Origin: a virus | Length of the DNA stretch: 64,000 nt | Virus record (IMG/VR): IMGVR_UViG_3300033688_000038 | Span: 29,341 to 93,340 of that record | Reading direction: 5' to 3' (one strand) | Shown here: positions 43,114 through 60,628 of the stretch, piece by piece | Layout of the letters: each line of letters starts with the position of its first letter | How positions within the stretch are numbered: the first letter of the stretch is position 1 | Position numbers and translations under genes: made by a program | Notes under the pieces: model-generated | Seen by the model: only the letters and a program-made list of their open reading frames with translations | The model's database searches: none | Told to the model about the DNA's origin: nothing

Positions 43114-46100
43114 TTAACTAGCATCACCAGGGTTATAAACTCCACCATACGTTCTAGTGGTTTTAGGCTCTGTTGTACCAGTAGCCTCCGCACGAACTTC
43201 ATGTCCATTATTAAATGATAACCCACCAAAAGTGTTTCTATAAGTACTGGCAATACTAGAAGCGGTTTTAGCTACACTACTAGTAGGGTCAATAGCTAGA
43301 TAACATTTATAAGGGTCAAGTGCGCACTTCTTAATTTTAGTAGCGTCACCTCCAACCTGAGTCACCTCAATTGAGAGTTTAATATCTCTAGTCAAGTGTG
43401 TTGTAGGGAATGATACAACTGCAGATGGATACAACCCTTTAAAGTTACCAGAAACAGCTGGAACCATTTTAACAGTAATATCATTACCAATCTTCTCTTT
43501 AGTATCAGCATTCTTCAATGTGAACACTAGAGAACTAAGGCCAGTAAGATCTTCCTTATCAGCAGTTAAGTGTATACATGTCTTCAAAGAGTAATTACCT
43601 TCATTAATTAAACTGAAAGCAGCACCATTTTTACTAAAGATAATATTAGATTTAGCATCTTGTACAAGCTGCCATTTAATACCACCACCAGATATAAACT
43701 TTTGATCATTTATAGTAGTAAACACAGAGTGATGTTCATCCGTTATGCCATAATCTTTGTAAGACCACACACTCCAAATAGTACCACTTTTCCTATATCT
43801 AGTAAGAACTTTACCAGTTTCAAACTCACAATAAGATTGGAACCAATTAGCATCATTATAATAGATATTACTTAATGAACCAGCCTTACCACCTACAATA
43901 CCAAGACCTCCAGTAGCAATTGTAGCTGATGCACTAGATTGTGAAATATTAGTAACACATAGATTTTTATTATCATCCTCTATGTATCTAGTGGGGTTAG
44001 GTAATGTTACTGGAAACCTTTTAGATATAGATTTAACATGTAAATCCATCTCTGGATAAGCAAAACTCTTCCAATTATTACCATCAGAAAGATAAAGTGT
44101 TGATGTGTTTTTAGTAAAACCAAGACATTCAGTATTACTACCAACTGGACATGCAGTAGCAAGTGATGCTATATTATCAGCAACATTAATAGCACTCTTA
44201 ATATCAACTGTTAATTCTTTAGTACGACCATCATACCTTGAATTAGACAAACCACCTGTGATATTAATCTTATCAATAGGCATATCTTTAGGGGTAATCA
44301 TTGTTTGACCGTCAGCACTAGTCATAGCACCTACACACTTACCAGTAATAATACTAGCAATTGTAGGTGTGTATTCAATATACTGATTATCACCCTCACC
44401 CTCTGTAGTTAACAGTCCACCATTAAGTTTAATCTTATGTACAGATGGATAAGTGACATCAACTTCACCTATACCTTGTGTCTTTTTACCTTTAAGACTT
44501 AATGTACCAATATTAACTGTAGTTTCATCTCCGCTTCCGCTTACAATTGCATTACCTTTAATATTTATCATGTGTACATTTTTACTTATATTCTCTGCAC
44601 CCTTATCATCCATACCCTTGATAGAGATACCTTTAGAGTCCACTTTTATACTCGTATTTTTAGATTCTGTAATAACCTCAGTTACTAAGTTGTCTCCGAA
44701 AGTGATCTTACTAGTGTTAAGTTTAACAGGTTTAGCTTCACCATTATTACCAACAACTTCAATACCACTAGGAGTTCCACCACCTCCACTGCTCTCAACT
44801 GTAACAATAGCAGTATTAGTGCCATCAGTCTCAGTCACATGAGATAATATAGCAGAACCAGCGAATGTTAGTTTACCAACTTTATCTACAATAATAGGAG
44901 CACCATCGGTATCTTTACCAGTAATAGTGTGACCTTTGTAACCTATGACTGACTTAGAGTATTTACCAAGAACAGTATCCGTTACTTCAACTTTTTCTAA
45001 TGTAAGATGGTTCCCCTTTAGTTCAATCTCTTTAGAATCAAAAGCTTTTACGGGAGCACCTGTTGGATCTGTTCCACCAATCAATACAGTCTTTGATTCT
45101 AAGAAAGTAATCTTGGTTGTACCTTTAGTATCAGAAGTATCACCCTCTATCCTAACATTACCAGCAAAGGATAAACCTGACTGCTCTTTACGAATAAGAC
45201 CAGTGTTTGCTTTCCTGACAGTCATCATTTTAGCTGTAACAGAGACACCATCATTGTGTTGACCTGTTTGGTATACATTAAATGAGTTCCTATTAAACCC
45301 TATTGTTTTAGCTTTAGTTGTGTGATATGAACCAGAGGAATCTTCACCTGTCACTGTCACTGTATTATCAGGTGTACCAGGTGTACCACCGCCAGCTGGA
45401 GGAATAGCAATTAACATTGCACCATCATCTGAGAGGCTAGAACCTGTTGTACTATTATTAACTACTGTGATTGATTTGATTGGCTTGCTAGCAGCACCAA
45501 TAGTGCCATCAATACCCTTAATGTACAATGTATTTGAATCATCTATAAAAGATCCTACATTCTCATGAACTTTCAATTTACCAATAGGCTTAGCTGTACC
45601 TTCACCAACTTGAGCCACAAAAGTACTAGTATCTGAGTTTATAGACACAACACCATTAAGTGTCGTAAGTGTAATCCCTTTACCTTGTTTAATATCTTTT
45701 ACTATACCACCATCTGTACCAATCGGAGAGTCAGTGGAATCAAGGGCTCTTATTGCACTAATAGTTAGTTTCTTACCAGGGACATCAACTGTATGGTACG
45801 GACTATTAAAGTGTAATGTATCAACTTGAGCAGGAGATCCTTCTGCAACTTCTACTGTAAGGACTGTACCCACAGACGCTGATTTAGGTGGAACATTGAT
45901 AGTTAAAACACCAGCATCTGTAACAGATGTACTTCCAGCTTCTAATTCTGTTACTACAATCTTACTTAAACCTTTAGTAGCTGAACCAACAACACCTTGT
46001 ACACCTTTCAAATGTAGAGTATTATCAGAGTCTTCATAAACACCAGAATTGACACCAAACTTAAGTCTAGTAATAGGTTTGATAACATCACCACCAGCAT

Positions 46101-48213
46101 TTTGTGATTCCATCTTAGGAGTCTCTAAGATATTAATGTCAAGTGTTCCATCAACAAGTGTTGACTTTTTATTACTACCACTTATTTTAATCTTTTTAAC
46201 TTGACCTTCAGTACCATCACCAATTACACCTACAATACTATTAGTAGTTTGATCTGGTACATTAATGGTTAAGATGCCCTTGTTGATACTTGTAGTTTCA
46301 TTCTTAGTAATTTTGATTTGAGAAATAGGGGTAACTGCTCCATCACCAATCCTAGCTTCTTGTCCTTTAATATATAAAGTTTTCTTATCAGTACCTTCAT
46401 ACACACTGTTAATAGCGTCTGCTTTTATAGTATTAATAGGTTTAACACTGCCATTACCAATCTTAGAGTCTAAAATCTTAGTATCTAATAAATTGATACT
46501 TAATCTACCACCTGAGATAGTAGAACCTGTTGTCTTACCTGTAAGCCTAATTTTGGTAACAGGAGTAGTTGTCCCAGTTCCAATCTGAGCAGAGATTTGA
46601 TCTTGTGAGATAACCTCAACTGTAGCTGCATTAGGTACAACATTTCCTTGTGTATCATAAGAGTCAGATACAGTAACACCTTTACCTTTAAATCTAATCT
46701 CACTAAGTCCAGTCTTAACATCAGTAGGAGTACTAATAGTTGTGGTTTTTGATATTTTCATTGTAGGTAGAGCTTTTACAGAAATAACTTTTGTATTATC
46801 AGCACCTACTTTAGATATTAAACCAAAACCAATAGAGTCAAATTCTAATTGATCTACCTCTGGGAATACAGAGCCAACAGTTTTATCATCAGATACAATT
46901 AACTTCTTAGTTATAGTACTAGTTTCTTTAAAATCAAGAGTTAATATTCCACCCTCAATTGAAGTTCCAGCACCATAAGCACCTTTGATAGCAATCTCAG
47001 TAATAGGTTGAGCAGAGTCTACACTATTGAAACCCCAACGATCACCTGAGCTTGTCCACTTCTCATCACCCGACCACTTCTTACGGAAAGTCTTAGTGTG
47101 TAATGGATTACCAGTAAGTGAATCACTGAAAGTTTGAATACTCTCTTGTACATCTTCTATAGCAGGATTCCATTTATTATTTCCAATCCAGTTAGCTGGT
47201 TCATCCCATGTGTTACGAGGAGAAGTACCATTACCAGTATCTGGGTCCCACTTATTATCACCAATCCATGTCTCAGGTTCATTCCACAGAGTTCTATCTT
47301 GAAGCCTGATATCGCTCCACTTATTACTACCAACCCATGTGTCAGGTTCACCCCACACTGATTTACCTAAATCTTCACCTTTGTAAATCCAGTTCTCTAG
47401 GTCAAACCAGTCTTCTCTGTCACTCCATAAAGCTATTTGTTCTTCTGGTACATCTTCTAGATTCTTACCAACAAGAGTAGCATTAAAATGAGGTATTTTA
47501 AGATTAAGTGTATTATCCGTGACACTAGTACTAGCTGTATTACCAGAGATAATCATATTATCATAATGTTCTGGCTTTAAAGCAGCACCAACTGTTACCA
47601 TTTTATTTGGGATATCAAGTGTTAATGTACCATCACCTATCCTACATAAATCAGAATCACCTGTAATCTCTAGTTTGTTTATATGACCAGAAGCACCTGT
47701 ACCATCTGGTTTCTTAATTTCTGTTGATAGTGATGTTTTAGCACTAACTTCAATAGTAAGATGAGTTGGTTCATCTTTATCTGGTTGTGTAATTGAAGCA
47801 CCTGGGAAGTTAAGAAAATCAGCTACATAATTCTTAGTTCCATTTCCAACGTGAATAGAACCGCCTCCACCTCCACCTCCTGTAAACATAGGTGAGAAGT
47901 CACACTCTGATTGAACACCAGAGTTATTATATAAAGTAAAAGTTTTAGTTGGACCATCTACATGGCACTGTACAAAAGACTTCTTTGTAATAATAGTATT
48001 CTTAGAGACTGTTGGTTCTAGATAATCTAACCTAGATTGAAACTTATTAATAATAGTTTTATTACTTTGTATTTCACTTGCCATTGACTTCATTTGTAAA
48101 TCTGAAGCAGCAGCTTTTATTTCAAGATCATTCACCTTTAAAATAGCAGGGTTTAACGAACCTGTACGTATGGTCTTTTTTAAATCACCATTATTAAAAA
48201 CAGGGATTGCCAT
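43114..48213 (-). CDS. Giant repeat-rich appendage (putative head-fibre) protein, 1699 aa
   Basis: Many ~40-45-aa beta modules ('A.IG.G...PI.KI.I....S.I..G.L.INI'); Trp-rich insert; N-terminal '[16 protein letters not shown]' resembles the shared anchor. Confidence 0.7.
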
Positions 48214-48231
48214 TGTTATACTCCTTAAACG

Positions 48232-48270
48232 AAAAAAGGGGGTAAGACTGAATTAACAATCTTACCCCCT
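48232..48270 (-). terminator. Strong rho-independent terminator ending the MCP array
   Basis: 11-bp stem AGGGGGTAAGA/TCTTACCCCCT followed by a T-tract on the - strand. Confidence 0.9.
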
Positions 48271-48291
48271 AATTGGAGTATAACCTAATGG

Positions 48292-48426
48292 TTATTTTTT
48301 AAGTTTTCCCTTCACCACAGGTGTTTTATCAACTGAAGGTCCAACTTCTACAACTGAAGGCTTAACCCTAACAGTCTTTGTAGCTAAAGTTGGATCTACT
48401 GTTGGTGGAGGGTTTACGCCTTTTTT
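48292..48426 (-). other. Putative programmed -1 frameshift (A AAA AAG) giving MCP-8 a 42-aa extension
   Basis: Heptamer at 48426-48420 just before the stop; the -1 frame reads GVNPPPTVDPTLATKTVRVKPSVVEVGPSVDKTPVVKGKLKK* to 48292 and ends 22 nt before the terminator stem. Confidence 0.7.
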
Positions 48427-49337
48427 ACTTCAAGTACACCTGAAGCGAAAGGGTTGCGGTGACGAAGACCTACTTCCATCTCGATCATCCACTTCTCATA
48501 GCTGCCATCTTTAGCTAGCTTAGTACGCTCTGGAGAACGTAGAACCATTTGAGTCCAATCAGATGGAGTGAAGAAGTAAATTGCATCTTCTGGCATCCAA
48601 CGGTTAGGCATTAATTTGTACTCTTGACCTAGTGGGTCTACTAGAGTAGAAACAAATACACTGAACTTAGGAGTGTTCTCAAAGATACGCTGACGAGAAC
48701 CATCACCTTTCTCTTGCAATGCAGAGAATAAAGATGCATGCTTAGGGTGGAACATGATAATGTTCGCATTAGAGCCTGCAAGGTAAAGGTTATAAGTCAA
48801 ACCAAAGATGTCAACTTCTGTAAGAGTTGCACCAGCAGTTTCTGTATGCACAACAGCACCAGTGTCTGTATCAGCAACAGCTTTAGCAGCAACTAATCCA
48901 CGGAAACCTGAAGTCTCACGAGCAACGCCGTTAGAGCCATCAACTTTAGCGATTTGAGTTAGGAATGCATGCTCTAGGTCACGCTTGATTTCTGTACCAG
49001 CTTTTTCCATTTGATATTGAAGCTCTTTACCACGACCGTAGTTTGCTAATGCGTTAGCTGTGTCAGATACTTTAACTACTTTACGTAGAATCTGTGTCAC
49101 GTTGTTATGTACAGTGGTCATCTTTGGTAAGCCGCCTTCAACAGCAGTTTCACCTTCAGCGATAGCATTCTTAGAAACTGGGTTCAGTGCATCTGACTGC
49201 CACTGGAACAAAGTATTCTGGATAGACTCTTTACCAGTCATTGAAGTGAAAGGAGTTTCAGCTGGAGATAGATTAGAAATCCAGTTAGCAAAACTTAATT
49301 TTTTACCGTTTAGGTCATAAGATTGTAGAGTAGCCAT
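48414..49337 (-). CDS. Major capsid protein paralogue 8: bare core, probably the main MCP, 307 aa
   Basis: SU10/phiEco32-type (DUF5309) MCP motifs 'SYDLNGKKLSFANWIS', 'TQILRKVVKVSDTA', 'LAKDGSYEKWMIEMEVGLRHRNP'; own promoter; AGAGGA SD. Confidence 0.92.
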   Translation of the reverse strand: MATLQSYDLNGKKLSFANWISNLSPAETPFTSMTGKESIQNTLFQWQSDALNPVSKNAIAEGETAVEGGLPKMTTVHNNVTQILRKVVKVSDTANALANYGRGKELQYQMEKAGTEIKRDLEHAFLTQIAKVDGSNGVARETSGFRGLVAAKAVADTDTGAVVHTETAGATLTEVDIFGLTYNLYLAGSNANIIMFHPKHASLFSALQEKGDGSRQRIFENTPKFSVFVSTLVDPLGQEYKLMPNRWMPEDAIYFFTPSDWTQMVLRSPERTKLAKDGSYEKWMIEMEVGLRHRNPFASGVLEVKKA

Positions 49338-49355
49338 ATTTAGTAATTCCTCTTT

Positions 49356-49399
49356 TTAAGAAGCTGAACAGCTTCGGATAAGTGAGATATGATTCTCAC
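49356..49399 (-). promoter_or_regulatory. Two hairpins in the 5' leader of MCP-8
   Basis: GTGAGA-atcata-TCTCAC and GAAGCTG-tt-CAGCTTC lie between the promoter and the SD. Confidence 0.45.
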
Positions 49400-49416
49400 A
49401 TTGGATACAAGATAAG

Positions 49417-49444
49417 TATACAACAATTTATGGAAAAACTCACA
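49417..49444 (-). promoter_or_regulatory. Putative late promoter TGTGAG-N15-TTGTATA dedicated to MCP-8
   Basis: Motif copy in the 139-nt gap between MCP-7 and MCP-8. Confidence 0.8.
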
Positions 49445-49476
49445 TAATATATAAAAATAAATTAATATATTATTTT

Positions 49477-50562
49477 TCACCCATAGGGTTTGGTTAAAAG
49501 TGGGATAGTGTTGTCATCAGCAGTTGATTTGATAACTAATACACCTGAAGAGAATGGATTTCTATGTCTAAGACCTACTTCCATTTCTACCATCCACTTT
49601 TCATATGAACCATCTTTAGCAAGCTTGGTGCGCTCTGGTGGTCTTAAAACCATCTGAGTCCAGTCATGAGGAGCAAAGAAGTAGATAACAGATTCAGGCA
49701 TCCATCGATTAGGGATCAACCGATACTCTTGTCCTAATGGATCTACTAGAGTAGAAACATAAGCAGATACCATTGGTGTGTTCTCAAACATACGGACACG
49801 TGTAGAAGCCTTCTCTTGTAATGCACTGAAAGTAGATGCCCATCTTGGATGGAACATAATAATATTAGCACTAGAACCAGCTAAATAAAGATTATAAGTC
49901 ATAGAGAAAATATCTGACTCTTTGACTTCATTACCAATAATATTAGCATCAGGTGATACAAGATTAGTAATACCAAAAACAGTACGAGCACCTGTATCAG
50001 GGTCTGACCAACCATCAATACCTCTACCTGTTTTAGGATCAGGATTTGTGACAGGGTCTGTTAACTTCTTAATACCCTTAAGAGTCATCTTCTTATCTAT
50101 TTCACTTAATGGACTAGCACATAGAGCTATAAAACCAGCAGTCTCTCTAGGATCTGCTCTAGTCTCAGCTTTAGAATCAGCATTGTTCATGAACGTCCAT
50201 TCTAAATCACGTTTAATCTCTTTACCTGCCTTTTCCATTTGATACTGTAATTCTTTACCTCTTCCATAGTTAGAAAGGGCATTGGCAGTATCTGAAATCT
50301 TAACAGTTTTACGTAAGATTTGTGTAATATTAGATCTGACTGTTGTAGTTTTTAAAGCAGAGTCCTTAGCAATATCACCTTCTATCATAGCATTCTTTAC
50401 AGCTTTGTTTAATGAATCATTCTGCCATTGGAATAGTGTTTGAGAGATAGCCTCTTTACCCGTCATAGAACTAAAAGGTGTCTCCTCAGGAGATAGATTA
50501 GAAATCCAATTAGCGAATGATAACTTCTTACCATTCAGATCATAAGATTGTAATGTTGACAT
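49477..50562 (-). CDS. MCP paralogue 7: ~25-aa internal insertion, no Ig domain, 361 aa
   Basis: All core motifs present; insertion 'SEIDKKMTLKGIKKLTDPVTNPDPKTGRGIDG'. Confidence 0.88.
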   Translation of the reverse strand: MSTLQSYDLNGKKLSFANWISNLSPEETPFSSMTGKEAISQTLFQWQNDSLNKAVKNAMIEGDIAKDSALKTTTVRSNITQILRKTVKISDTANALSNYGRGKELQYQMEKAGKEIKRDLEWTFMNNADSKAETRADPRETAGFIALCASPLSEIDKKMTLKGIKKLTDPVTNPDPKTGRGIDGWSDPDTGARTVFGITNLVSPDANIIGNEVKESDIFSMTYNLYLAGSSANIIMFHPRWASTFSALQEKASTRVRMFENTPMVSAYVSTLVDPLGQEYRLIPNRWMPESVIYFFAPHDWTQMVLRPPERTKLAKDGSYEKWMVEMEVGLRHRNPFSSGVLVIKSTADDNTIPLLTKPYG

Positions 50563-50581
50563 ATAATATTATCCTCAGGAG

Positions 50582-50597
50582 AGGGGGCGAACCCCCT
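50582..50597 (-). other. Intercistronic UUCG-loop hairpin between MCP-6 and MCP-7
   Basis: AGGGGG-TTCG-CCCCCT with no U-tract. Confidence 0.7.
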
Positions 50598-50605
50598 TTC
50601 AGTTA

Positions 50606-51949
50606 TTAAACCACAGAAACAGTTACAGTACCAGTTCTTGCTAACTCAACACCACTTTTATCTTGGTATGAGATGTAGTAATCACCACTATGTTGTGATG
50701 TAGCACCATGAGTAATCACAAAACCAGTAGCTCTTACAGTATCACCCTTCTCAGTCCAACGACCAGCTTCATGTCCATTCATAACTAACACTGTCATATC
50801 AGTAGCAATTATAGTGTGGGTTGCTTTGACAGCAGCAGCTGGATCTGGAATAGTTGCTTTTGTTTTTCTATCAAAGCTAATCTGACTTCCACGCTTAACA
50901 TCTACATGGAAATGTTCTTTCTTTTTAATATCCATATTAACAACAGCAGAAGTGCCAGGTTTAATATAATCAAAAGTAGCCTTCTCCCAAGCATTATCAT
51001 AAACTGGATCATCAGAACTGTCAATGTCTAGAACACCTGCTGCAAATGGATGGCGTAGACGTAGACCTACTTCCATTTCAATCATCCATTTTTCATATGA
51101 ACCATCTTTAGCAAGCTTGGTTCTTTCAGGTGGACGTAAAACCATTTGAGTCCAGTCAGAAGGATTGAAGAAGAATACATGACCTTCTGGCATCCATCGA
51201 TTAGGAATCAATTTATATTCTTGACCTAAAGGATCTACTAATGTAGAAACATAAACAGAAATCTTAGGAGTGTTGTGGAACATACGCTCTCTTGTACCAT
51301 CTGATTTCTCTTGTAGTGATGAGAATAAAGATGCATGCTTAGGATGGAACATGATGATACTAGCTTTAGAGCCAGATAAGTATAGATTATATGTTAAATC
51401 AAAAATATCATCTTCTGTAAGAGTACCAGTTGTTTTCACACTCTTGTGAACCATAGCACCAGTATCAATATCAGCAGTACCAATTGGTGAAACAAGACCT
51501 AAGAAACCAGCAGTTTCACGTGGGATTCGAGTACCCACTGTGTCTGTGTGTTCTTGTTGTGAGTTACCATTATGTAGGAATGCCCACTCAATATCACGTT
51601 TAATCTCTTTACCAGCTTTTTCCATCTGGTATTGTAATTCCTTACCCCTGCCATAGTTAGCAAGCGCGTTAGCAGTATCAGAGACCTTAACAGTTTTACG
51701 AAGAATCTGAGTTACGTTAGAACGTACTGTAGTTGAACGTAATGAAGCATCAATTGCCTCATCACCCTCTTTGACAGCATTTCTACCCGCTTTAATTAGT
51801 GAGTCATTCTGCCATTGAAACAAAGTCTGTGATACAGTTTCTTTACCAGTCATTGATGTGAAAGGTGTTTCTTCTGGTGATAAATTAGAAATCCAGTTAG
51901 CAAAACTTAGTTTTTTACCATTTAGATCATAAGATTGTAATGTTGCCAT
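50606..51949 (-). CDS. MCP paralogue 6 with C-terminal Ig-like domain, 447 aa
   Basis: Core motifs plus 'VMNG...QHSGDYYI...TVTVSV'. Confidence 0.88.
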   Translation of the reverse strand: MATLQSYDLNGKKLSFANWISNLSPEETPFTSMTGKETVSQTLFQWQNDSLIKAGRNAVKEGDEAIDASLRSTTVRSNVTQILRKTVKVSDTANALANYGRGKELQYQMEKAGKEIKRDIEWAFLHNGNSQQEHTDTVGTRIPRETAGFLGLVSPIGTADIDTGAMVHKSVKTTGTLTEDDIFDLTYNLYLSGSKASIIMFHPKHASLFSSLQEKSDGTRERMFHNTPKISVYVSTLVDPLGQEYKLIPNRWMPEGHVFFFNPSDWTQMVLRPPERTKLAKDGSYEKWMIEMEVGLRLRHPFAAGVLDIDSSDDPVYDNAWEKATFDYIKPGTSAVVNMDIKKKEHFHVDVKRGSQISFDRKTKATIPDPAAAVKATHTIIATDMTVLVMNGHEAGRWTEKGDTVRATGFVITHGATSQHSGDYYISYQDKSGVELARTGTVTVSVV

Positions 51950-51973
51950 AAATTATTTTCCTCTTGTAAAGTA

Positions 51974-51991
51974 GTGGGGATTTCTCCCCAC
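51974..51991 (-). other. Intercistronic GAAA-loop hairpin (possible leaky terminator) between MCP-5 and MCP-6
   Basis: GTGGGGA-GAAA-TCCCCAC followed by TACTTT. Confidence 0.7.
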
Positions 51992-51998
51992 ATTTGTC

Positions 51999-53330
51999 TT
52001 ACTTAACTGTGATGTTAATAACAGCTGATTTAGCTAAAGCCTTACCATCTTTATCCATATACATTAGGTAGTAATCACCATTGTGTTTTGATGCTGTGTC
52101 GTATGAATACTTGAACTCTAAATCAGAAGTACCAATACCAGTCCAACGTCCACTCTCTTTTCCATTGAAGTAGATACAAGTGATGTCAGTAGCTGCAGGT
52201 GTAGCGGTCTTAGCTGAATTTGATGGGATAGTTGATTTTGTTTTTCTCTTAAAGATAAGTTGAGTACCAGGTTTAACATCAATGTGTTGTGGGTTTACCT
52301 CTGCTTTTAAATCTAAAGTAGATACATTTGTATCTCCAGATTTAACATATTTAAGCTCCATTGTCTCCCAAGCTTTTGCACCCATATCAGGGTTATCACC
52401 ATGAGCTACGTCAAGAACACCAGCTGCGAATGGATGACGTAAACGCAATCCAACTTCTGTCTCGATCATCCACTTCTCGTAAGAACCATCTTTAGCAAGT
52501 TTAGTACGCATTGGAGCACGAAGAACCATCTGAGTCCAGTCGCTAGGGTTCAAGAAGAAGATAGAACCTTCAGGCATCCAACGGTTTGGAATCAACTTAA
52601 ACTCTTGCCCTAATGGGTCAACTAGTGTAGAAACATAAACAGAAAGCTTAGGTGTGTTCTCAAACATACGAACACGAGTAGGAGATTTCTCTTGTAGAGC
52701 ACTGAAAGCAGCAGCCCACTTAGGGTGGAACATGATAATGTTTGCACTTGAACCTGCTAGGTATAAATTGTATGTTAGGTCAAAAATATCTGACTCAGTT
52801 AATTTATTATCAGTTACTACTTTTTTATGTACAACAGCACCTGTATCTGGATCAGTGTTATCAATGTGAGCCACAAGACCTAAGAAGCCAGCAGTTTCAC
52901 GAGGTTGACGAACACCACTTTGATCTGTGTATTCAGCACGAGAGGCTTCATTATTCAAGAACGCCCATTCTAGGTCACGCTTTAGTTCAGAACCTGCCTT
53001 CTCCATTTGGTACTGAAGCTCTTTGCCTCGACCATAGTTAGCAAGAGCGTTAGCGGTATCAGATACCTTAACAGTTTTACGTAGGATTTGTGTAAGGTTA
53101 GAACGTACAGTAGTTGCTCGTAGTGAACCATCTGTAGCTTCGATACCCTCAACGATTGCGTTCTTACCAGCTTTAGATAGCGCATCATTCTGCCATTGGA
53201 ATAGTGTTTGGGTGATTGACTCTTTGCCAGTCATTGAAGTGAAAGGTGTCTCCTCAGGAGATAGATTAGAAATCCAGTTAGCAAAACTTAGTTTTTTACC
53301 ATTTAGATCATAAGATTGTAGAGTAGCCAT
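51999..53330 (-). CDS. MCP paralogue 5 with C-terminal Ig-like domain, 443 aa
   Basis: Core motifs plus 'YFNG...KHNGDYYL...INITVK'. Confidence 0.88.
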   Translation of the reverse strand: MATLQSYDLNGKKLSFANWISNLSPEETPFTSMTGKESITQTLFQWQNDALSKAGKNAIVEGIEATDGSLRATTVRSNLTQILRKTVKVSDTANALANYGRGKELQYQMEKAGSELKRDLEWAFLNNEASRAEYTDQSGVRQPRETAGFLGLVAHIDNTDPDTGAVVHKKVVTDNKLTESDIFDLTYNLYLAGSSANIIMFHPKWAAAFSALQEKSPTRVRMFENTPKLSVYVSTLVDPLGQEFKLIPNRWMPEGSIFFLNPSDWTQMVLRAPMRTKLAKDGSYEKWMIETEVGLRLRHPFAAGVLDVAHGDNPDMGAKAWETMELKYVKSGDTNVSTLDLKAEVNPQHIDVKPGTQLIFKRKTKSTIPSNSAKTATPAATDITCIYFNGKESGRWTGIGTSDLEFKYSYDTASKHNGDYYLMYMDKDGKALAKSAVINITVK

Positions 53331-53345
53331 GTTTTATATCTCCTA

Positions 53346-54728
53346 TTAACCTTTCATATGAAAGTATACAGATTTTGATTGTTTTTTATATGTTGGATTC
53401 GCTGAATCAGTTAAGATTAACAAATAGTTTCCAACATTCTTTGATGAAGCCACACTTGTGATGACAAACTCAGTATCCTTGTCACTAGTGATTGTTTCTC
53501 TTGCTAAGTAGACTCCATCCTTATAAAGGGAGACCACATTCCAAGTTGCAGACTCAGCAGTGTCAGCTTTACCTGATGGAGCTGGTGGATCTGGTTTTGG
53601 TGGTGGTGGTGGATCTTCCTTTTTATACTTCTTAATTTTGAAAGATAACTTATCTCCAGTAACATAAGGAACATCAATACCATATTCTCCAAGACCACCA
53701 AGCATATCAATCTCAGTGGAATCTGTTAAAGATCTACCCTCGATGATTAAAGATGTTACATCAACATCCTTTTTGATATGAACATTATCAGTGGTATCTA
53801 GGATACCTGCAGCAAAAGGGTTTGATAATCTTAAACCAAGCTCAGCTTCGATCATCCATTTTTCATATGAACCATCTTTAGCAAGCTTAACGCGAGATGG
53901 TGGTCTTAATAACATTTGTGTGAAATCACTAGCCTTGAAGAAGAAAATCTTCTCTTCTGGCATCCAACGATTAACAACCAATTTATGTGTTGCACCAAAC
54001 ATATCAACTAATGTAGAAACATATACTGATAATTTAGGTGTATTCTCAAAGATTCTTCTTCGTGAAGCTTCTTCAGGTTTCCCACCATCAGCTGGTCTTT
54101 CTTGTAGTGCTGAGAAATATGATGCCCATTTAGGGTGGAACATAATAATATCTGTCTCAGAACCAGCAATGTAAAGATTATGAATAATATTGAAAATATC
54201 CATATCCTCAAAAACGCCATCAGCTTTACCAGTACTTTGATGTACAATGGCTCCAGTTTCAAAATCAACAGCACCAAGAGGTGCCACCAACCCAGCAAAA
54301 CCAGCAGACATCCTTCCATGCTCATCTGTTTCATCAGATGCTAGTTCATTGTTCAAAAGAGCCCATTCGATATCCCGTTTAAGTTCTTCTGCTGCATTCT
54401 CTAGCTGGTATTTAACTTCCTCTGTTCTACCATAGTTTTCAGTAGCATTAGCAGTATCAGAGATACTAATAACCTTACGGAGGATTTGAGTCATGTTAGA
54501 TTTAGTATCAGTGTGACCAACATTACCAGACACAGCATCATCACCTTCAGAGTTAACATTACGACCTGCTACTGCAAGGTTATCAGTCTGCCACTGAAAG
54601 ATAGTTTGATTTGTAGCCTCTTTTCCAGTCATAGATGAAAAAGGTGTATCTATTGGAGCTATTGTTGAGATCCAATTGGCAAAACTTAACTTCTTGCCAT
54701 TCAGATCATAAGATTGTAAAGTAGACAT
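53346..54728 (-). CDS. MCP paralogue 4 with C-terminal Ig-like domain and Pro-rich loop, 460 aa
   Basis: Core motifs plus 'DPPPPPKPDPPAP', 'LYKDG' and 'NVGNYLL'. Confidence 0.88.
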   Translation of the reverse strand: MSTLQSYDLNGKKLSFANWISTIAPIDTPFSSMTGKEATNQTIFQWQTDNLAVAGRNVNSEGDDAVSGNVGHTDTKSNMTQILRKVISISDTANATENYGRTEEVKYQLENAAEELKRDIEWALLNNELASDETDEHGRMSAGFAGLVAPLGAVDFETGAIVHQSTGKADGVFEDMDIFNIIHNLYIAGSETDIIMFHPKWASYFSALQERPADGGKPEEASRRRIFENTPKLSVYVSTLVDMFGATHKLVVNRWMPEEKIFFFKASDFTQMLLRPPSRVKLAKDGSYEKWMIEAELGLRLSNPFAAGILDTTDNVHIKKDVDVTSLIIEGRSLTDSTEIDMLGGLGEYGIDVPYVTGDKLSFKIKKYKKEDPPPPPKPDPPAPSGKADTAESATWNVVSLYKDGVYLARETITSDKDTEFVITSVASSKNVGNYLLILTDSANPTYKKQSKSVYFHMKG

Positions 54729-54736
54729 ACTTTCTC

Positions 54737-56164
54737 CTATGATTTATATCTTAAGTGCATACCATCTGTTAGTTCAACTAACGCACCATCTGCACTAGAA
54801 CCTACAAGAACATAAGTACCTGCATCAGAAGGAGAAGCCTTCTCAGAAATAATAAATTCCTCAGAGGCAGCACCATCAACAGATGTTAATTTATGGTTCA
54901 TAATAATCTGACCATCTTTGATAAGTTTAAAAGAAGCCACTACTATGTTAGCAGGAAGTTCAGAATTCTTCTTAGATTGAACTTTTAGTTTAAGAGGTTT
55001 ACCAGGGATTAAATTAAACTCAGAATCCTTATTAAAATCACCACTATGTAGCACACTCTGAGAAATCTTTTTAACTTTAAAGATTGGCTTCTGTGCAGGG
55101 GTAAGGGGTTTAGATTTAATAGCATCATCAGAGCCAATCCAAAGCACACCAGAGCCATAAGGGTTTGCGTGTTGTAATCCAACCTCTGCTTCAATCATCC
55201 ACTTCTCTGAAGAACCTTTCTTAGATAGTTGAGTTCGTTTAGGTTGACGAAGAACCCTTTGTGTCCAATCTTTAGGATCAAAGAAGTAAATAAGATGAGT
55301 GGGCATCCAACGATTAGGGATCAACATGTAAGTTTGACCTAATGGGTCTGTTACTTCATTCACAAAAAGAGAAACCTTATCTGTGTTCTCAAAAAGTCTT
55401 GTTCTTTTACTAAGTGTAGGAGTCTCTGGAGCACCACCAGAATATATAACATTTGGTGATTCTTGTAGAGAACTAAAAAACTTAGCTTGACTTGGATGAT
55501 ACATAATAGTGTTAGCATCAGAACCTGACAAATATAAATTATAAGTCATTGTCCAGAGTTTACTTTCTGTAAGTTCCTCACTTACCCAAATATCTGGGCT
55601 AAAATTAGGTGAGTGATCTGCCATAGTAGTATCTCTTGTAAAGAAGTTCACAACAGCACCAGTTTCAGGGCAAGGTGTATTAGCAGGGGCTACCAAAGGA
55701 TAGAACCCAGCTGTTAATCTAACACCCTCTTCCACAGGAGCACCAGCAGAATCAAGAGATGATTCATCATGAGAGCCTGCTTTATTATTCAGGAATGCCC
55801 ATTCAATATCACGCATTAACTCTGTACCAGCTTTAGTCATTTGATACTCAAGTTCTTTACCTCTACCATAATTAGATAGGGAGTTAGATGTATCAGAAAC
55901 CTTAATCACTTTACGAAGGATTTGAGTTACATTACTCTGATCAAGTGTAACGTAAGCATCATCCTCAACAGCAGATGAACCCTCTAGTACAGCATTATCT
56001 TCTACTCTATCTAGATTATCAGTTTGCCACTGAAAGGTGATTTGATCTGTTGGTACTTTTTTAGTCATTGAAGTAAAAGGAGTCTCCTCTGGGGAGATAT
56101 TACTAATCCAATTAGCAAATGATAACTCTTTGCCGTTCAGATCATAAGAATGAATTGTAGCCAT
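54737..56164 (-). CDS. MCP paralogue 3 (most divergent core) with Ig-like domain, 475 aa
   Basis: Variant motifs 'IHSYDLNGKELSF' and 'LSKKGSSEKWMIEAEVGLQHANPYG'; three loop insertions; 'IKDG...SDAGTYVL'. Confidence 0.85.
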   Translation of the reverse strand: MATIHSYDLNGKELSFANWISNISPEETPFTSMTKKVPTDQITFQWQTDNLDRVEDNAVLEGSSAVEDDAYVTLDQSNVTQILRKVIKVSDTSNSLSNYGRGKELEYQMTKAGTELMRDIEWAFLNNKAGSHDESSLDSAGAPVEEGVRLTAGFYPLVAPANTPCPETGAVVNFFTRDTTMADHSPNFSPDIWVSEELTESKLWTMTYNLYLSGSDANTIMYHPSQAKFFSSLQESPNVIYSGGAPETPTLSKRTRLFENTDKVSLFVNEVTDPLGQTYMLIPNRWMPTHLIYFFDPKDWTQRVLRQPKRTQLSKKGSSEKWMIEAEVGLQHANPYGSGVLWIGSDDAIKSKPLTPAQKPIFKVKKISQSVLHSGDFNKDSEFNLIPGKPLKLKVQSKKNSELPANIVVASFKLIKDGQIIMNHKLTSVDGAASEEFIISEKASPSDAGTYVLVGSSADGALVELTDGMHLRYKS

Positions 56165-56166
56165 TA

Positions 56167-57576
56167 TTACTCCTTAGCTTTCTTTGCTCGTGGTTTACGT
56201 TGAGGTTTTACTTCAACAACTTCAGTTTGGATTTCATCAGCCTTTGTATAAGGTTGAGCATCAACTTTAAGTCCATAAGATTCTGTCTGTTCTACATACT
56301 TGTAGTTAGTTCCAACGGCAGTCTTCTTCAAACCAATAGCATAATAAATACCAGCATCTTTTGTATCAACAGATTCTGAGATTACATGAGTGAATGTATC
56401 ACCTGCTGTTGTAGATACAGGTAATTTAGATGCGTACAAAATATCATCTTTATATAAGTCAATATAATCCACTTTTGCAACTGGTGCTTTTAATGTAATG
56501 ACAAACTTAGAACCAGCTGTTAGTTTACCAGTGTTCTCTGTATAAGAAGCTGGTTCAATCTCATCAGTCCCAGCACTACCTGTTTTATATACTACATCGG
56601 TAATATTTGCAACAATAGGTGCAGCAGGTTTTATCATTAATAGACCTGAAGAGTAAGGATTAACATGTCGTAAACCAACCTCCATTTCTACCATCCACTT
56701 CTCGTAAGAACCATCTTTAGCAAGTTGTGTTCTCTGTGGTTCTCTTAATAAAACTTGAGACCAGTTATCAGGATTAAAGATATAAACAGCATCATCTGGC
56801 ATCCAACGATTGGGGATTAGCTTAAACTCTTGTCCCAGTTGATCTACTAATGTAGAAACATATACTGATAGTTTAGGTGTGTTATTAAACATACGTTGTC
56901 TATTTGTAACTGGGTTTCCATCTAAACCTTTATACGTACCTTGACTCTCTTGTAAAGAACTAAAGAATGATGCCCATTTAGGATGGTACATAATAGTATC
57001 AGCCTCAGAGCCTGCTGTATATAAAGAGAATAGTAAATGGAAGATATCTAACTCACTAATTGAATTAGGATTAGCAGTCTCCATAGTCGTAATAGCACCT
57101 GTCTCAGGACAAGGCATATTCAGTGGAGCAACTAATCCGCGATAACCAGCAGTCTTTCGAGGGGTTGTTCCATCAACATCTTGCTCAGCACTCTTATTAG
57201 TTAATAGCGCATACTCAAGGTCACGTTTAATCTCTTTACCAGCTTTCTCAAGTTGATATTTAACCTCTTTATCTCTACCGTAGGTATCTAGAGCATTTGC
57301 AGTATCAGAGATCTTAACTACTTTACGTAAGATTTGAACTGTGTTACTTTTTGTACTAGTTGATCGTAGTGGGACAGATTGAGCTCTATCACCTTCACCA
57401 TGAACATTACGACCAGCCTGTTGCAATGAATCGGTTTGCCATTGGAAAACTACCTGGTTTGTTTTATCCTTTCTTGTCATTGAAGAGAAAGGACAATCCA
57501 TTGGAGATAGGTTACTAATCCAATTAGCAAATGATAATTTCTTACCATTTAAATCATAAGATCTTAAAACAGACAT
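56167..57576 (-). CDS. MCP paralogue 2 with Ig-like domain and basic tail, 469 aa
   Basis: Core motifs plus 'LYKDD...KDAGIYYA' and tail 'VVEVKPQRKPRAKKAKE'. Confidence 0.88.
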   Translation of the reverse strand: MSVLRSYDLNGKKLSFANWISNLSPMDCPFSSMTRKDKTNQVVFQWQTDSLQQAGRNVHGEGDRAQSVPLRSTSTKSNTVQILRKVVKISDTANALDTYGRDKEVKYQLEKAGKEIKRDLEYALLTNKSAEQDVDGTTPRKTAGYRGLVAPLNMPCPETGAITTMETANPNSISELDIFHLLFSLYTAGSEADTIMYHPKWASFFSSLQESQGTYKGLDGNPVTNRQRMFNNTPKLSVYVSTLVDQLGQEFKLIPNRWMPDDAVYIFNPDNWSQVLLREPQRTQLAKDGSYEKWMVEMEVGLRHVNPYSSGLLMIKPAAPIVANITDVVYKTGSAGTDEIEPASYTENTGKLTAGSKFVITLKAPVAKVDYIDLYKDDILYASKLPVSTTAGDTFTHVISESVDTKDAGIYYAIGLKKTAVGTNYKYVEQTESYGLKVDAQPYTKADEIQTEVVEVKPQRKPRAKKAKE

Positions 57577-57585
57577 AACTTCCCC

Positions 57586-58902
57586 TTACAAATCGATAGC
57601 GACAGTTCCACCAATATTTAGTGTGATACCTGGAGTGACATCTTTATTAACAGAAGTAATAGCAGATACGGAGTATAATCCAGCATGTTCAGCAGTAGCT
57701 ACATCTGTAATCTTAATCTCAAGAGCTGCATCTTTACCACCTGCAATATACTCTTGTGTAATTAAAGGTACACCATTTTTATTAATAACAATTGTCACAG
57801 GCTTACCAGCAGTAGCATCTGCTTTAAGTTTCAACTTAACGATTAGTGGTTTACCAGGTTTATGAGTAGCAATACCATCTCCAGCTTTACCAAAAATAAG
57901 TGACTTAGCAGTATCACCTGTAACATCTTCAACAGTATGTAAAGTTGGGCTATCATCCACTGCAGTACCTACACCATTAAAGATTTTGTAGAAATCAGCA
58001 CCTTTCTTAGTTGTAAGAACACCTGCTGCGAATGGATGGCGTAGACGTAAACCTACTTCCATTTCAATCATCCACTTCTCATATGAACCATCTTTAGCAA
58101 GTTGTACACGAGTTGGTTCACGAAGTACCATTTGTGTAAAATCTTCTGGACGGTAGAAGAATACCTTATCAGTTGGCATCCAACGATTTGGTAGTAATTT
58201 ATATTCTTGACCTAAAGGATCAACCAACGTCGATACATGTAGGTTAACTTTATCTGTATCTTCAAACATACGAATACGAGTTGCTGATTCTTGTAACATA
58301 CTAAAACGATAAGCCCAGTTAGGGTGATACATGATAATATTAGCTTTAGAACCACTTAAGTATAACTGGTAAGTCATATCAAAAAGTTCAGCTTCTGTGA
58401 ATTCTCCACCTGCTAGTTCTTTATAAACAACAGCACCTGTCTCAGGGCAACTAGAGTTTAGTGGAGCAACAAGTCCTGAAAAGCCAGCAGTCTCACGTGG
58501 GTCTGTAACTTTAGCAGTGCTTTGATTCAAGAATGTCCACTCTAAATCACGCTTAATCTCTTTACCTGCTTTTTCCATCTGATAAGCTAATTCCTTACCA
58601 CGACCATAGTTGTCGGTAGCATTTGCAGTGTCTGATACTTTAACTACTTTACGTAAGATTTGAGTTACGTTAGTACGAACAGTTGTAGTATTCATTACAC
58701 CTTCAGTAGCCTTTGTACCTTCTAATGCTGCATTCTTTTTAGCCTTAGTCAGTGAGTCGTTTTGCCATTGGAATAAGCACTGCTCAACAGATTCTTTTGC
58801 TGTCATTGAGACAAACGGACAATCTTGAGGAGAGATAGTACTAATCCAATTAGCAAATGATAACTTCTTACCATTAAGTTCATAAGATTTTAATGTAGCC
58901 AT
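57586..58902 (-). CDS. MCP paralogue 1 with Ig-like domain, 438 aa (start MATLKSY)
   Basis: AAGGAAG SD before 58902; the start aligns with the other seven copies; 'NKNG...EHAGLYSV'. Confidence 0.88.
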   Translation of the reverse strand: MATLKSYELNGKKLSFANWISTISPQDCPFVSMTAKESVEQCLFQWQNDSLTKAKKNAALEGTKATEGVMNTTTVRTNVTQILRKVVKVSDTANATDNYGRGKELAYQMEKAGKEIKRDLEWTFLNQSTAKVTDPRETAGFSGLVAPLNSSCPETGAVVYKELAGGEFTEAELFDMTYQLYLSGSKANIIMYHPNWAYRFSMLQESATRIRMFEDTDKVNLHVSTLVDPLGQEYKLLPNRWMPTDKVFFYRPEDFTQMVLREPTRVQLAKDGSYEKWMIEMEVGLRLRHPFAAGVLTTKKGADFYKIFNGVGTAVDDSPTLHTVEDVTGDTAKSLIFGKAGDGIATHKPGKPLIVKLKLKADATAGKPVTIVINKNGVPLITQEYIAGGKDAALEIKITDVATAEHAGLYSVSAITSVNKDVTPGITLNIGGTVAIDL

Positions 58903-59241
58903 ATAATATGTCTTCCTTGTATTATGCCAATCACGAAGATTGGTAATCGACAATAATCTTAATAAATTGGACTACAATGGAAGGCCAAACTTAATAATTA
59001 TTGACTTGATCTGTATAGATAAAAATAAATCTAGTATACAGGTAATGTTGTTATAAGTTTTATATAGTAGGGGTTTGTAACTAATGAGGTTTTATTCGAT
59101 GATATTTGAATTCTAATCTATACGTGAGTGTATAGTATTAGATAATATAATAGAACAGACTGATACAAATACAACTGTATAGAATGAACATTATCTTTTT
59201 AAAGTTTAGAGATTGCTTACAGGGAGTAAGGTTCTCGAATA

Positions 59242-59317
59242 AAGGACTACTGGCGTAGCCCTTGTTCAGGTTTGTTGCGTGGGGCATCTTCGGGAGTTTA
59301 TAATGCCCTGCCCCACG
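59242..59317 (-). ncRNA. Candidate structured RNA element between the scaffold gene and the MCP array
   Basis: GC-rich island with a perfect 9-bp CGTGGGGCA/TGCCCCACG stem and an AAGGGCTAC-gcca-GTAGTCCTT hairpin. Confidence 0.35.
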
Positions 59318-59365
59318 TCTTATATTTCTTTTAAGTTGCACTCAAGGTAGCAATCACCTTATTTA

Positions 59366-60400: not shown

Positions 60401-60406
60401 AAGTTG

Positions 60407-60628
60407 TTACTCCTCAAAATCGTAGTTATTTAAATTCTCCTGAAGCTTTTCATTTAGTCGTTTTAATGCTTTAGTTAGCATATAGAGTTCCTCACGTTTG
60501 GTCATTTCATCAGGGAGAGTCTCTACGATTTCAAGAGCTATATCTTGGTGTATCTCTCGGAGGAGGTCTTCTAAAAGACCACCCTCCATTAATTGTTTTA
60601 CTTTGCTAAACCGTTGGATATCATTCAT
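60407..60628 (-). CDS. Small helical protein between portal and scaffold, 73 aa
   Basis: Coding-like helical sequence ('KREELYMLTKAL') at a position where related podoviruses carry a small gene. Confidence 0.7.
   Translation of the reverse strand: MNDIQRFSKVKQLMEGGLLEDLLREIHQDIALEIVETLPDEMTKREELYMLTKALKRLNEKLQENLNNYDFEE

Follow-up and report, generated by a model that had tools for sequence, protein, structure and literature searches.

Two forms of the major capsid protein (MCP) are made by phages phiEco32, SU10 and Privateer, the long MCP-Ig form at a fixed low ratio; mass spectrometry or gels revealed the two, and in SU10 and Privateer the long frameshift product from a GGGAAAG site was observed by mass spectrometry (PMC4281155, PMC7881722). 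The phage described here has an MCP of the same family (52% identity to SU10 chains) and a homologous 3' slip position, but its -1 extension is reduced to 43 residues and contains no Ig domain. Six separate MCP paralogues instead each carry a predicted beta-sandwich domain as an in-frame fusion, an arrangement in which subunit ratios would depend on how strongly each gene is transcribed and translated and not on the frequency of slippage. Phages 7-11 (Salmonella) and GAP52 (Cronobacter), both Grimontviridae, are similar in having a short, top-adapted MCP gene, behind it a GC-rich hairpin terminator (GAAA-looped in 7-11, as in one of the hairpins here) and then an in-frame Ig-bearing paralogue that is less adapted (fraction of C-ending NNY codons, fC, 0.49 and 0.42). 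However, 7-11 and GAP52 have two MCP genes rather than eight, their short gene opens the pair, immediately following the scaffold gene, whereas the short gene here is last and stands behind a putative promoter of its own, and their hairpins bear long U tracts (T12 in 7-11) that the array hairpins lack.

The last gene of the array also resembles T7 gene 10, a major capsid gene with a private strong late promoter (phi10), a structured leader, a 3'-proximal -1 slip site giving a longer minor form (10A/10B), and a strong but leaky terminator (T-phi) before the next structural gene. T7 differs in using a single-subunit phage polymerase, whereas the promoter predicted here would be recognised by a phage sigma factor on host RNA polymerase; the present phage also has a 43-aa extension and seven more MCP paralogues upstream, with functions assigned from sequence.

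The array of eight capsid paralogues

The 124,877-bp phage genome carries eight tandem MCP genes (array 48414-58953), all on the minus strand. Coordinates are those of the window, the whole 64,000-nucleotide stretch of DNA that was analysed.

59242..59316, minus strand: pair of hairpins after the scaffold gene, -38.5 kcal/mol over 127 nt, z -3.6
57586..58902, minus strand: MCP-1, 438 aa from ATG; a TTG upstream at 58953 is also open
56167..57576, minus strand: MCP-2, 469 aa, starting 9 nt past the MCP-1 stop; background codon usage
54737..56164, minus strand: MCP-3, 475 aa, starting 2 nt past the MCP-2 stop; the most diverged core
53346..54728, minus strand: MCP-4, 460 aa, starting 8 nt past the MCP-3 stop; background codon usage
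51999..53330, minus strand: MCP-5, 443 aa; slowly evolving, branch length 0.17-0.19
50606..51949, minus strand: MCP-6, 447 aa; intermediate codon adaptation, sister to MCP-5 and MCP-7
49477..50562, minus strand: MCP-7, 361 aa; no C-terminal domain, internal insertion of ~40 aa
48414..49337, minus strand: MCP-8, 307 aa; canonical short MCP, last and shortest of the eight
43114..48213, minus strand: 1699-aa gene, starting 24 nt past the MCP-8 terminator

The two post-scaffold hairpins open a 463-nt untranslated gap ahead of MCP-1. MCP-1 to MCP-5 form a tight block with gaps of 2-15 nt, and MCP-6 and MCP-7 each lie behind a GC-rich tetraloop hairpin. All eight paralogues match PF17236, the SU10/phiEco32-type HK97-fold MCP, above the curated cut-off (E 3e-65 to 5e-81), with matches spanning 283-287 of the 292 profile positions; MCP-1 (E 2e-75) is built of an SU10-type core and a predicted C-terminal beta-sandwich domain. 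The predicted model of MCP-5, in which the N-arm is of low confidence, matches SU10 capsid chains 7z48/7z46/7z45 at E 1e-26 and 52% identity, the match to 7z48 lying in the core. Synonymous sites are saturated between all paralogues (pS 0.58-0.72), so that their codon biases represent long-term equilibria rather than the result of recent conversion.

The C-terminal domains of six paralogues, predicted to be beta-sandwiches, share a G-x-Y motif; searched against Pfam with E up to 10, none of the six gave a hit, whether to Ig/Big families or to others. The model of the MCP-5 domain (pLDDT 74.8, ten strands) gives as its best structural hits RhoGDI, PDE6D, Fc receptors and the neuregulin Ig domain, with TM 0.40-0.51 and E about 1e-4. 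Because the six paralogues differ mainly in this external domain, a role in display is suggested rather than in lattice position.

The proposed MCP-8 cassette

MCP-8 lies in a moderately supported clade (81/91) that also contains the single-copy MCPs of SJSY21, phiEco32, GAP52 (GAP52a) and LAh_8, and pairs with P0019 (99/96), and by this placement is the orthologue of the relatives' single-copy capsid gene. The features surrounding it are as follows.

49417..49443, minus strand: bipartite late promoter motif GTGAG-N17-TGTATA, sole copy within the array
49399-49382 and 49375-49360, minus strand: two leader hairpins, MFE -15.8 kcal/mol, z = -2.45
48420..48426, minus strand: A_AAA_AAG slippery heptamer, zero frame, 9 nt ahead of the MCP-8 stop
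48292..48423, minus strand: open -1 frame that runs on for 43 codons beyond the slip heptamer, Pro/Val/Lys-rich, no Ig domain
48270-48237, minus strand: intrinsic terminator, 14-bp stem and U6, -29.9 kcal/mol, z = -7.1

Every sequence feature listed in an earlier note on this DNA is present on the minus strand, including the two 5' leader hairpins, which fall in a predicted MCP-8 leader of ~70 nt. The terminator that it described as directly downstream of MCP-8 is present and strong, but begins 144 nt past the stop codon, and the spacer contains the open -1 frame behind the heptamer. Shine-Dalgarno pairing of MCP-8 (-6.0 kcal/mol) is not stronger than that of the other paralogues (-5.4 to -8.6). 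The 1699-aa gene that follows lacks its own promoter motif and thus would depend on read-through.

The promoter class was assigned from motif recurrence only. The strict pattern GTGAG-N16-17-TGTATA occurs 14 times in the 124,877-bp genome compared with 0.75 +/- 0.85 in shuffles, and all 14 copies are oriented toward a downstream gene. A two-block weight-matrix scan gives ten minus-strand sites scoring 27-37, the next best scoring 12; the site at 49443 scores 32.8, mid-range and seventh of the ten. No other site lies in the array (48414-58953), so for motifs of this class the claim that MCP-8 alone has a private promoter motif is correct. The -10-like half is similar to tAATGTAtA, the element mapped for phiEco32 gp36, and the consensus of the late promoters mapped in 7-11 is a different one, GTAAtg-16-aCTA (PMC8948821). 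The phage also encodes an ECF-type sigma gene (Sigma70_r2), and we infer from recurrence, orientation and this cognate sigma gene that the motif is a candidate phage-sigma-dependent late promoter.

The 3' end of MCP-8 has an X_XXY_YYZ heptamer in the zero frame and an open -1 frame that continues beyond the stop, with AGGTG 10 nt upstream of the heptamer. The heptamer occupies the position homologous to the GGGAAAG slip site of phiEco32, SU10 and Privateer, and the Ig extensions of relatives at the homologous site are 88-175 aa long. An AACCCU...AGGGUU pairing, read from the sequence, could begin 5 nt after the heptamer; RNAfold did not place its MFE stem at 5-9 nt past the heptamer but ~17 nt downstream, and we estimate the chance expectation of a 43-codon open -1 frame at this base composition as ~5%. 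Slippage into the -1 frame could yield a minor form of MCP-8 that is 41 residues longer. This slippery site went unnoticed in the earlier note.

Codon usage, tRNAs and intercistronic hairpins

Codon adaptation was compared using three indices: PC1 of RSCU built without the MCPs, fC, and a CAI weighted on the relatives' canonical MCPs, which themselves have fC 0.63-0.71 and no AGR. MCP-8 heads the eight paralogues on all three, followed by MCP-5 and MCP-1, then MCP-6, with MCP-2, MCP-3, MCP-4 and MCP-7 at background. MCP-8 also has the highest PC1 of the genome in an all-gene PCA, is third of 66 by CAI, and has fC 0.61, with 12 CGY and 0 AGR, and 21 GGY and 1 GGR codons. The GLRHRN motif is encoded, as previously quoted, by GGT CTT CGT CAC CGC AAC in MCP-8 and by GGT CTT AGA CAT AGA AAT in MCP-7, which has the lowest CAI of the eight; AGA and AGG are used freely by MCP-2, MCP-3, MCP-4 and MCP-7.

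MCP-5 is the second most codon-adapted paralogue (fC 0.51, PC1 3.26, 14 CGY and 1 AGR), alike in its core and C-terminal domain, and C-ending codon use in its core (0.54) does not differ from that of MCP-8 (Fisher p = 0.49). MCP-1 has 14 CGY and 0 AGR codons and is fourth of 66 by CAI, yet its fC is only 0.30-0.37. Bootstrap intervals on PC1 overlap among MCP-8, MCP-5 and MCP-1. The scaffold gene, which is expected to be abundant and has a CAI slightly above that of MCP-8, has an fC of just 0.18 though it lacks AGR, and single codon indices are therefore imperfect. The proposal of one major and seven minor subunits thus appears only partly right. That MCP-8 is the bulk shell protein is supported by its grouping with single-copy MCPs, its lead on three codon indices, and its private promoter motif and strong terminator. 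CAI places it at the top of the eight, but with MCP-1 next and the MCP-5 core comparable in C-ending codons the ranking is graded, and does not divide the paralogues into one and seven.

The further suggestion that codon choice tunes the other copies down puts the usual order of cause and effect the wrong way round. The phage tRNA genes include Arg(UCU), Arg(CCU), Gly(UCC), Ser(GCU) and Ser(UGA), and five of the six lie immediately behind a late promoter motif where the structural operon begins, so that rare codons are presumably at least partly compensated. Those for AGA, AGG, GGA, AGY and UCA cover four of the seven most 'non-optimal' codons (hypergeometric P = 0.0045). Of the Arg codons in all late genes, 51% are AGR, which is thus the late-gene norm rather than a special brake. 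With AGA, AGG and GGA served by phage tRNAs, weak selection is a likelier source of the poor codons than any deliberate lowering of expression.

Two GC-rich tetraloop hairpins, reported earlier between MCP-5 and MCP-6 (GAAA loop) and between MCP-6 and MCP-7 (UUCG loop, no U tail), are confirmed.

51974..51991, minus strand: hairpin after MCP-5, GUGGGGA-GAAA-UCCCCAC, 7-bp GC-rich stem, -13.4 kcal/mol, z -2.9
50582..50597, minus strand: hairpin after MCP-6, AGGGGG-UUCG-CCCCCU, 6-bp G/C stem, -12.1 kcal/mol

The first is followed by the U-poor tail UACUUUACAA, and the second, a hairpin that abuts the MCP-7 Shine-Dalgarno sequence, by CUCCUGAGGA; neither array hairpin has a U tract after its stem, and a terminator scan made no call for them on the coding strand. 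The UUCG hairpin is not more stable than shuffled sequence (z -0.75). There are 11 perfect GC-rich hairpins in the 125 kb, five of them intergenic, with intergenic DNA constituting ~11% of the genome. GC hairpins are also found between the MCP paralogues of four phages (7-11, GAP52, L004 and L015), providing comparative support for level-setting, and it is plausible that the hairpins set expression levels, either by attenuation or by stabilisation of the upstream cistron. Intercistronic hairpins set subunit ratios in the Rhodobacter puf operon (pufBA) and in E. coli pap (papBA). As in these operons, a stable hairpin stands between cistrons of one assembly, and by analogy would favour the upstream cistron, here the codon-adapted MCP-5.

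Expression of the array and competing explanations

We consider it probable that MCP-8 is the canonical MCP gene placed in a dedicated high-output cassette, and that the other paralogues are read from the late operon with graded output. The phage-sigma promoter would add MCP-8 transcripts above those from upstream read-through, giving an mRNA with a structured leader of ~70 nt. Its codons appear the most host-like of the eight, and the phage Arg tRNAs would not be needed to read them. The slip site, of the dnaX/T7-10B type, may give the minor form with 41 additional residues, and the strong yet leaky terminator would close the cassette. MCP-1 to MCP-7, lacking a promoter of this class, are probably transcribed from a long late operon originating upstream of the tRNA cluster and terminase. 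Output would be highest for MCP-8, substantial for MCP-5 and probably MCP-1, lower for MCP-6, and low for MCP-2, 3, 4 and 7, with the hairpins most likely acting as partial terminators, 3'-end protectors or both, favouring MCP-5 over the genes downstream.

A stricter model, in which MCP-8 is the one bulk subunit, the other seven are uniformly minor, and hairpins and deliberately poor codons restrain the Ig-bearing copies, seems to us unlikely. It accounts for a promoter motif and terminator exclusive to MCP-8 and for the free use of AGA and AGG in MCP-7, MCP-2, MCP-3 and MCP-4, and in the SU10 capsid a single capsomer class does dominate, the other seven being small (PMC9509320). However, it is at odds with the C-ending codons of the MCP-5 core, the avoidance of AGR by MCP-5 and MCP-1, the tRNAs directly behind the late promoter motif, and the prevalence of AGR across late genes. 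The SU10 classes (P1, P2, H1, H2L, H2R, H3, H4 and H5, two pentamer and six hexamer; PMC9509320) are equal in number to the eight intact, anciently diverged paralogues, and each paralogue could be imagined to build one class of an SU10-type prolate capsid, with the expression ranking encoding stoichiometry. A dominant tube hexamer and rarer cap, seam and vertex subunits would then be encoded genomically, by the array's ranking through promoter, hairpins, coupling and codons, and paralogues would replace the conformational switching of SU10's single MCP. There is a precedent in T4, the vertices of which are built from the paralogue gp24. We nonetheless find this quite improbable, because the match is numerical only, one MCP gene suffices for the prolate heads of SU10, phiEco32 and the 112-kb Vp_R1, and other metagenomic relatives have two, three or more copies; moreover, the six paralogues with C-terminal domains differ in a manner suggesting display, and codon ranks give three adapted genes, not one.

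In a further alternative, which we also strongly doubt, the codon differences reflect history and not expression: MCP-1 to MCP-7 would be duplicates, redundant or drifting, or else imported genes, with selection on them relaxed, and the hairpins would be scars of duplication or general RNA stabilisers that play no part in stoichiometry. The long branches of MCP-1 to MCP-4 (0.58-1.22), the lack of any Pfam family recognising the C-terminal domains, and the unexceptional stability of the UUCG hairpin are in keeping with such an origin, but all eight reading frames are intact, exceed the Pfam cut-off and retain 106 invariant columns. A near-identical strain keeps the eight MCPs with 0-5 substitutions each, full-length homologues of the MCP-5/6 type occur in other metagenomes (55-58% identity), and the hairpins recur between MCP paralogues in the four other phages. 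A gammaproteobacterial host, previously suggested from the preference for CGT and CGC, fits with the nearest cultured relatives.

Layout of the capsid gene array

The window covers bases 29341-93340 of a viral record of 124,877 bp, which carries its early and middle genes on the plus strand and a long late structural block on the minus strand, in which the terminase, portal and scaffold genes are followed by eight intact open reading frames (MCP-1 to MCP-8), each matching the Pfam family SU10_MCP far above cut-off. Among cultured phages the nearest, with approximately 70-72% amino-acid identity to MCP-8, belong to the Grimontviridae type of prolate podophages and infect Vibrio, Aeromonas, Cronobacter, Salmonella, Proteus and E. 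coli. The eight products differ as follows.

MCP-1 to MCP-6: C-terminal domains of 130-160 aa
MCP-7, 49477-50562, minus strand: internal insertion of ~40 aa (residues ~150-200) between the spine helix and the A-domain; without a C-terminal domain
MCP-8: bare core of 307 aa

As modelled by AlphaFold, MCP-5 matches the SU10 subunit, and its C-terminal domain modelled alone is a ten-strand beta-sandwich with weak Ig/E-set matches. Searches of the C-terminal domains against Pfam gave no match, and 'Ig-bearing' seems a reasonable description of the modelled fold, with no named Ig family assigned.

Genes MCP-1 through MCP-5 are separated by 9, 2, 8 and 15 nt, spacing that would suit coupled translation; the next two gaps (49 and 43 nt) are each occupied by one hairpin, and the last, of 139 nt, contains a putative promoter. 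Shine-Dalgarno strength gives no ranking of the eight genes, and we rejected the idea that MCP-8 is favoured by a stronger Shine-Dalgarno sequence or a more open initiation region, as neither was seen. The gap between the scaffold gene and MCP-1 (58903-59365, minus strand) is 463 nt long, opens with a pair of very stable hairpins and contains no open reading frame, late-promoter copy or Rfam match; similar hairpins follow the scaffold gene in phage 7-11 and in the related locus L004. An Rfam search of 48000-60500 returned nothing credible.

The putative late promoter and the MCP-8 cassette

An earlier note on this DNA had credited MCP-8 alone with a promoter motif, and GTGAG-N17-TGTATA is indeed present ahead of MCP-8 at 49443-49417 (minus strand) and nowhere else in the array. 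Inspection of all late-block intergenic spacers shows that the two-part motif also precedes several other genes of the block. The strict motif occurs 14 times in the genome, compared with 0.75 ± 0.85 in Markov shuffles, each copy oriented toward the downstream gene, and a minus-strand scan with a weight matrix built from the motif sites gave ten hits scoring 27-37 with all else at 12 or below. Weaker copies ahead of any of the first seven MCP genes, or within the 463-nt gap, were rejected, the next-best score in the array being 5.8 against at least 27 for the hits. A sigma-70-like scan showed no enrichment (44, versus 42.6 in shuffles). The phage encodes a Sigma70_r2 protein, an ECF-type sigma at record coordinates 17255-17842, and the TGTATA half-site resembles the mapped phiEco32 gp36 promoter element tAATGTAtA; the 7-11 sigma also has a bipartite site (PMC8948821). 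Because the motif is absent from 41 of 41 related loci, we regard it as a candidate promoter class specific to this phage.

As also claimed earlier, the MCP-8 leader forms a pair of small hairpins. In the first of them, the 5' arm (49394-49399, minus strand) repeats the upstream element TGTGAG ~45 nt downstream of the real one, perhaps by chance, perhaps as a sigma-binding or decoy feature. A 246-aa gene before the window, immediately upstream of the sigma gene (record coordinates 16443-17183, plus strand), has its own motif copy and the top codon adaptation among non-MCP genes.

In a maximum-likelihood tree of MCP cores, the sister of MCP-8 is a metagenomic protein of 306 aa (99/96), and MCP-8 clusters with the single-copy MCPs of SJSY21, phiEco32, GAP52 and LAh_8 (81/91); MCP-5, 6 and 7 form a separate clade (97/99), and MCP-1 to MCP-4 are long unresolved branches. 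This placement identifies MCP-8 as the orthologue of the ordinary (canonical) capsid gene. It shares the codon signature of the canonical MCPs of relatives, with a C-ending fraction of 0.61 (0.63-0.71 in the relatives, whose neighbouring genes are ordinary) and, like them, no AGR arginine codons.

The 3' end of MCP-8 (GTA AAA AAG GCG TAA) contains the zero-frame heptamer A_AAA_AAG 9 nt before the stop, with AGGTG ten bases upstream, a candidate slip site that the earlier note had not mentioned.

48292-48426, minus strand: slippery heptamer and open -1 frame of 43 codons, without an Ig domain

This frame ends ~20 nt ahead of the stem of a terminator (48270-48237, minus strand) that far exceeds every other structure of the region in strength. 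The terminator was correctly recognized, although it is not directly downstream of MCP-8 but separated from the stop by a 144-nt spacer. In phiEco32, SU10 and Privateer the homologous position is occupied by GGGAAAG, with -1 frames of 168-175 aa behind it, and -1 extensions are 88 aa in the LAh_8 type and 168 aa in that of the related locus L005. Long products have been seen for SU10 (38.5 and 55.4 kDa forms; PMC4281155) and in Privateer virions (PMC7881722). Because these extensions occupy the homologous position, the 144-nt spacer is probably the family's frameshift extension in reduced form, either a shrunken relic or a short version that still functions. The MCP-8 cassette, with a promoter, a leader, a slip site and a presumably leaky terminator, would closely parallel T7 gene 10.

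Codon adaptation of the eight paralogues

The eight genes were compared by three codon indices: the first principal component (PC1) of RSCU in 58 non-MCP genes of at least 150 codons each, onto which the MCPs were afterwards projected; the C-ending fraction, taken as C in NNY two-fold codons plus Ile in the core only; and a CAI weighted on the canonical MCP genes of six relatives. PC1 sets CGT, TCT, GGT, ATC and GCT against AGA, AGG, TTA, ATA, AGT and GGA.

Codon indices of the MCP genes (genome mean CAI, 0.480)
Gene; PC1; C-ending fraction; CAI
MCP-8; 3.69; 0.61; 0.649 (rank 3 of 66)
MCP-5; 3.26; 0.54; 0.586
MCP-1; 2.90; 0.37; 0.588
MCP-6; 0.84; 0.36; 0.549
MCP-2; 0.05; 0.24-0.29 (range of last four genes); 0.503
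MCP-3; 0.01; as MCP-2; 0.508
MCP-7; -0.40; as MCP-2; 0.464 (lowest of eight)
MCP-4; -0.87; as MCP-2; 0.492

The PC1 bootstrap intervals of MCP-8, MCP-5 and MCP-1 overlap, and the C-ending fraction of MCP-8 differs from that of MCP-7 (p = 2e-5) but not from that of MCP-5 (p = 0.49), whose bias continues through the C-terminal domain. The codons quoted in the earlier note for MCP-8 and MCP-7 are exact, and its view of one major and seven minor subunits survives insofar as MCP-8 ranks top; by codon usage, however, adaptation is graded, with MCP-5 and MCP-1 as two further adapted genes. Synonymous sites are saturated for every MCP pair (pS 0.58-0.72), and the codon biases are therefore equilibrium states; the same values speak against the MCP-8/MCP-5 bias having arisen through recent gene conversion or a recent origin, and we rejected both. 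Unusual similarity between paralogues is confined to the first ~30 codons.

The genome has six tRNA genes: Ser(UGA), Gly(UCC), Arg(UCU), Ser(GCU), Trp(CCA) and Arg(CCU).

Record 93906-94397, just past the window end: five tRNA genes (Trp, Ser-GCU, Arg-UCU, Gly-UCC, Ser-UGA)
Record 94414-94440: late-promoter copy just upstream of these five, at the head of the terminase-to-MCP-7 unit

The anticodons of these five match codons avoided by the best-adapted genes. Codon choice had been proposed to tune the Ig-bearing copies down, but four of the seven codons that load most negatively on PC1 are read by phage tRNAs (P = 0.0045), and AGR accounts for 51% of the Arg codons of late genes at large versus 29% elsewhere. 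Poor codons are thus probably not a brake on expression, and the weak bias of MCP-2, 3, 4 and 7 is as expected for genes expressed at a low or moderate level when the genome is AT-rich; it need not reflect adaptive tuning.

Intergenic hairpins, relatives and predicted capsid composition

Both array hairpins, after MCP-5 with a GAAA loop and after MCP-6 with a UUCG loop, agree with the original description. Perfect GC-rich hairpins are scarce, the whole 37% GC genome having 11, five of them intergenic; those at 9823-9838, 21811-21831, 35094-35112 and 42799-42815 each fall within the opening 75-300 nt of a large late gene, a placement that thereby recurs in four such genes. GC hairpins also lie between the MCP paralogues of 7-11 (GAAA loop, T12), GAP52 (U tract), L004 (short U tract) and the IMG/VR fragment L015 (tetraloop, no U tract, between its second and third MCP genes), a recurrence that favours the proposal that they tune expression levels. 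In 7-11 and GAP52 the hairpin follows an adapted short MCP and precedes a less-adapted decorated paralogue, an order that the comparison suggests to be the rule in the family rather than accidental; here the first hairpin follows the adapted MCP-5, and adaptation drops stepwise from MCP-5 to MCP-6 to MCP-7. In the puf and pap operons a hairpin protects the 3' end of the upstream segment, and the placement here fits either such protection or partial termination.

Arrangements with two paralogues (7-11, GAP52) are already known, as are frameshift fusions, but the literature searched gave no account of a long HK97-fold MCP array, and we found no other long array in IMG/VR, metagenome contigs or genome contigs. 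The IMG/VR search gave just 2-3-copy fragments (L004, L015) and known two-copy phages, and genome contigs gave no relatives. L015 (6140-8424) has at least three tandem short MCP genes without C-terminal domains. Within several groups of long metagenomic MCP homologues, the longest contigs have the same length (P0009/P0025/P0035, 56,456 bp; P0029/P0034, 64,901 bp; P0005/P0007, 5,267 bp; P0008/P0024, 28,745 bp), which suggests that other uncultured phages carry several long decorated MCP paralogues.

Shells of tailed phages are normally built of one HK97-fold protein, with minor decorated forms made by frameshifting. Here ratio control of the decorated forms appears to have shifted from frameshifting to the gene level: the canonical cassette would have been retained with a shrunken frameshift extension and seven full paralogues added, their output seemingly encoded by promoters, spacing, hairpins and codon bias. 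The predicted virion ranking is MCP-8 > MCP-5, MCP-1 > MCP-6 > MCP-2/3/4/7, and this, like all our statements on expression, is inferred from sequence. The array offers a natural case for studying multi-paralogue HK97 lattice assembly and a template for multi-display phage capsids. The SU10 capsid has exactly eight capsomer classes, one of them dominant (PMC9509320), a match to the eight genes here in number only. A near-identical strain keeps MCP-1, 5, 6, 7 and 8 with 0-5 substitutions each.
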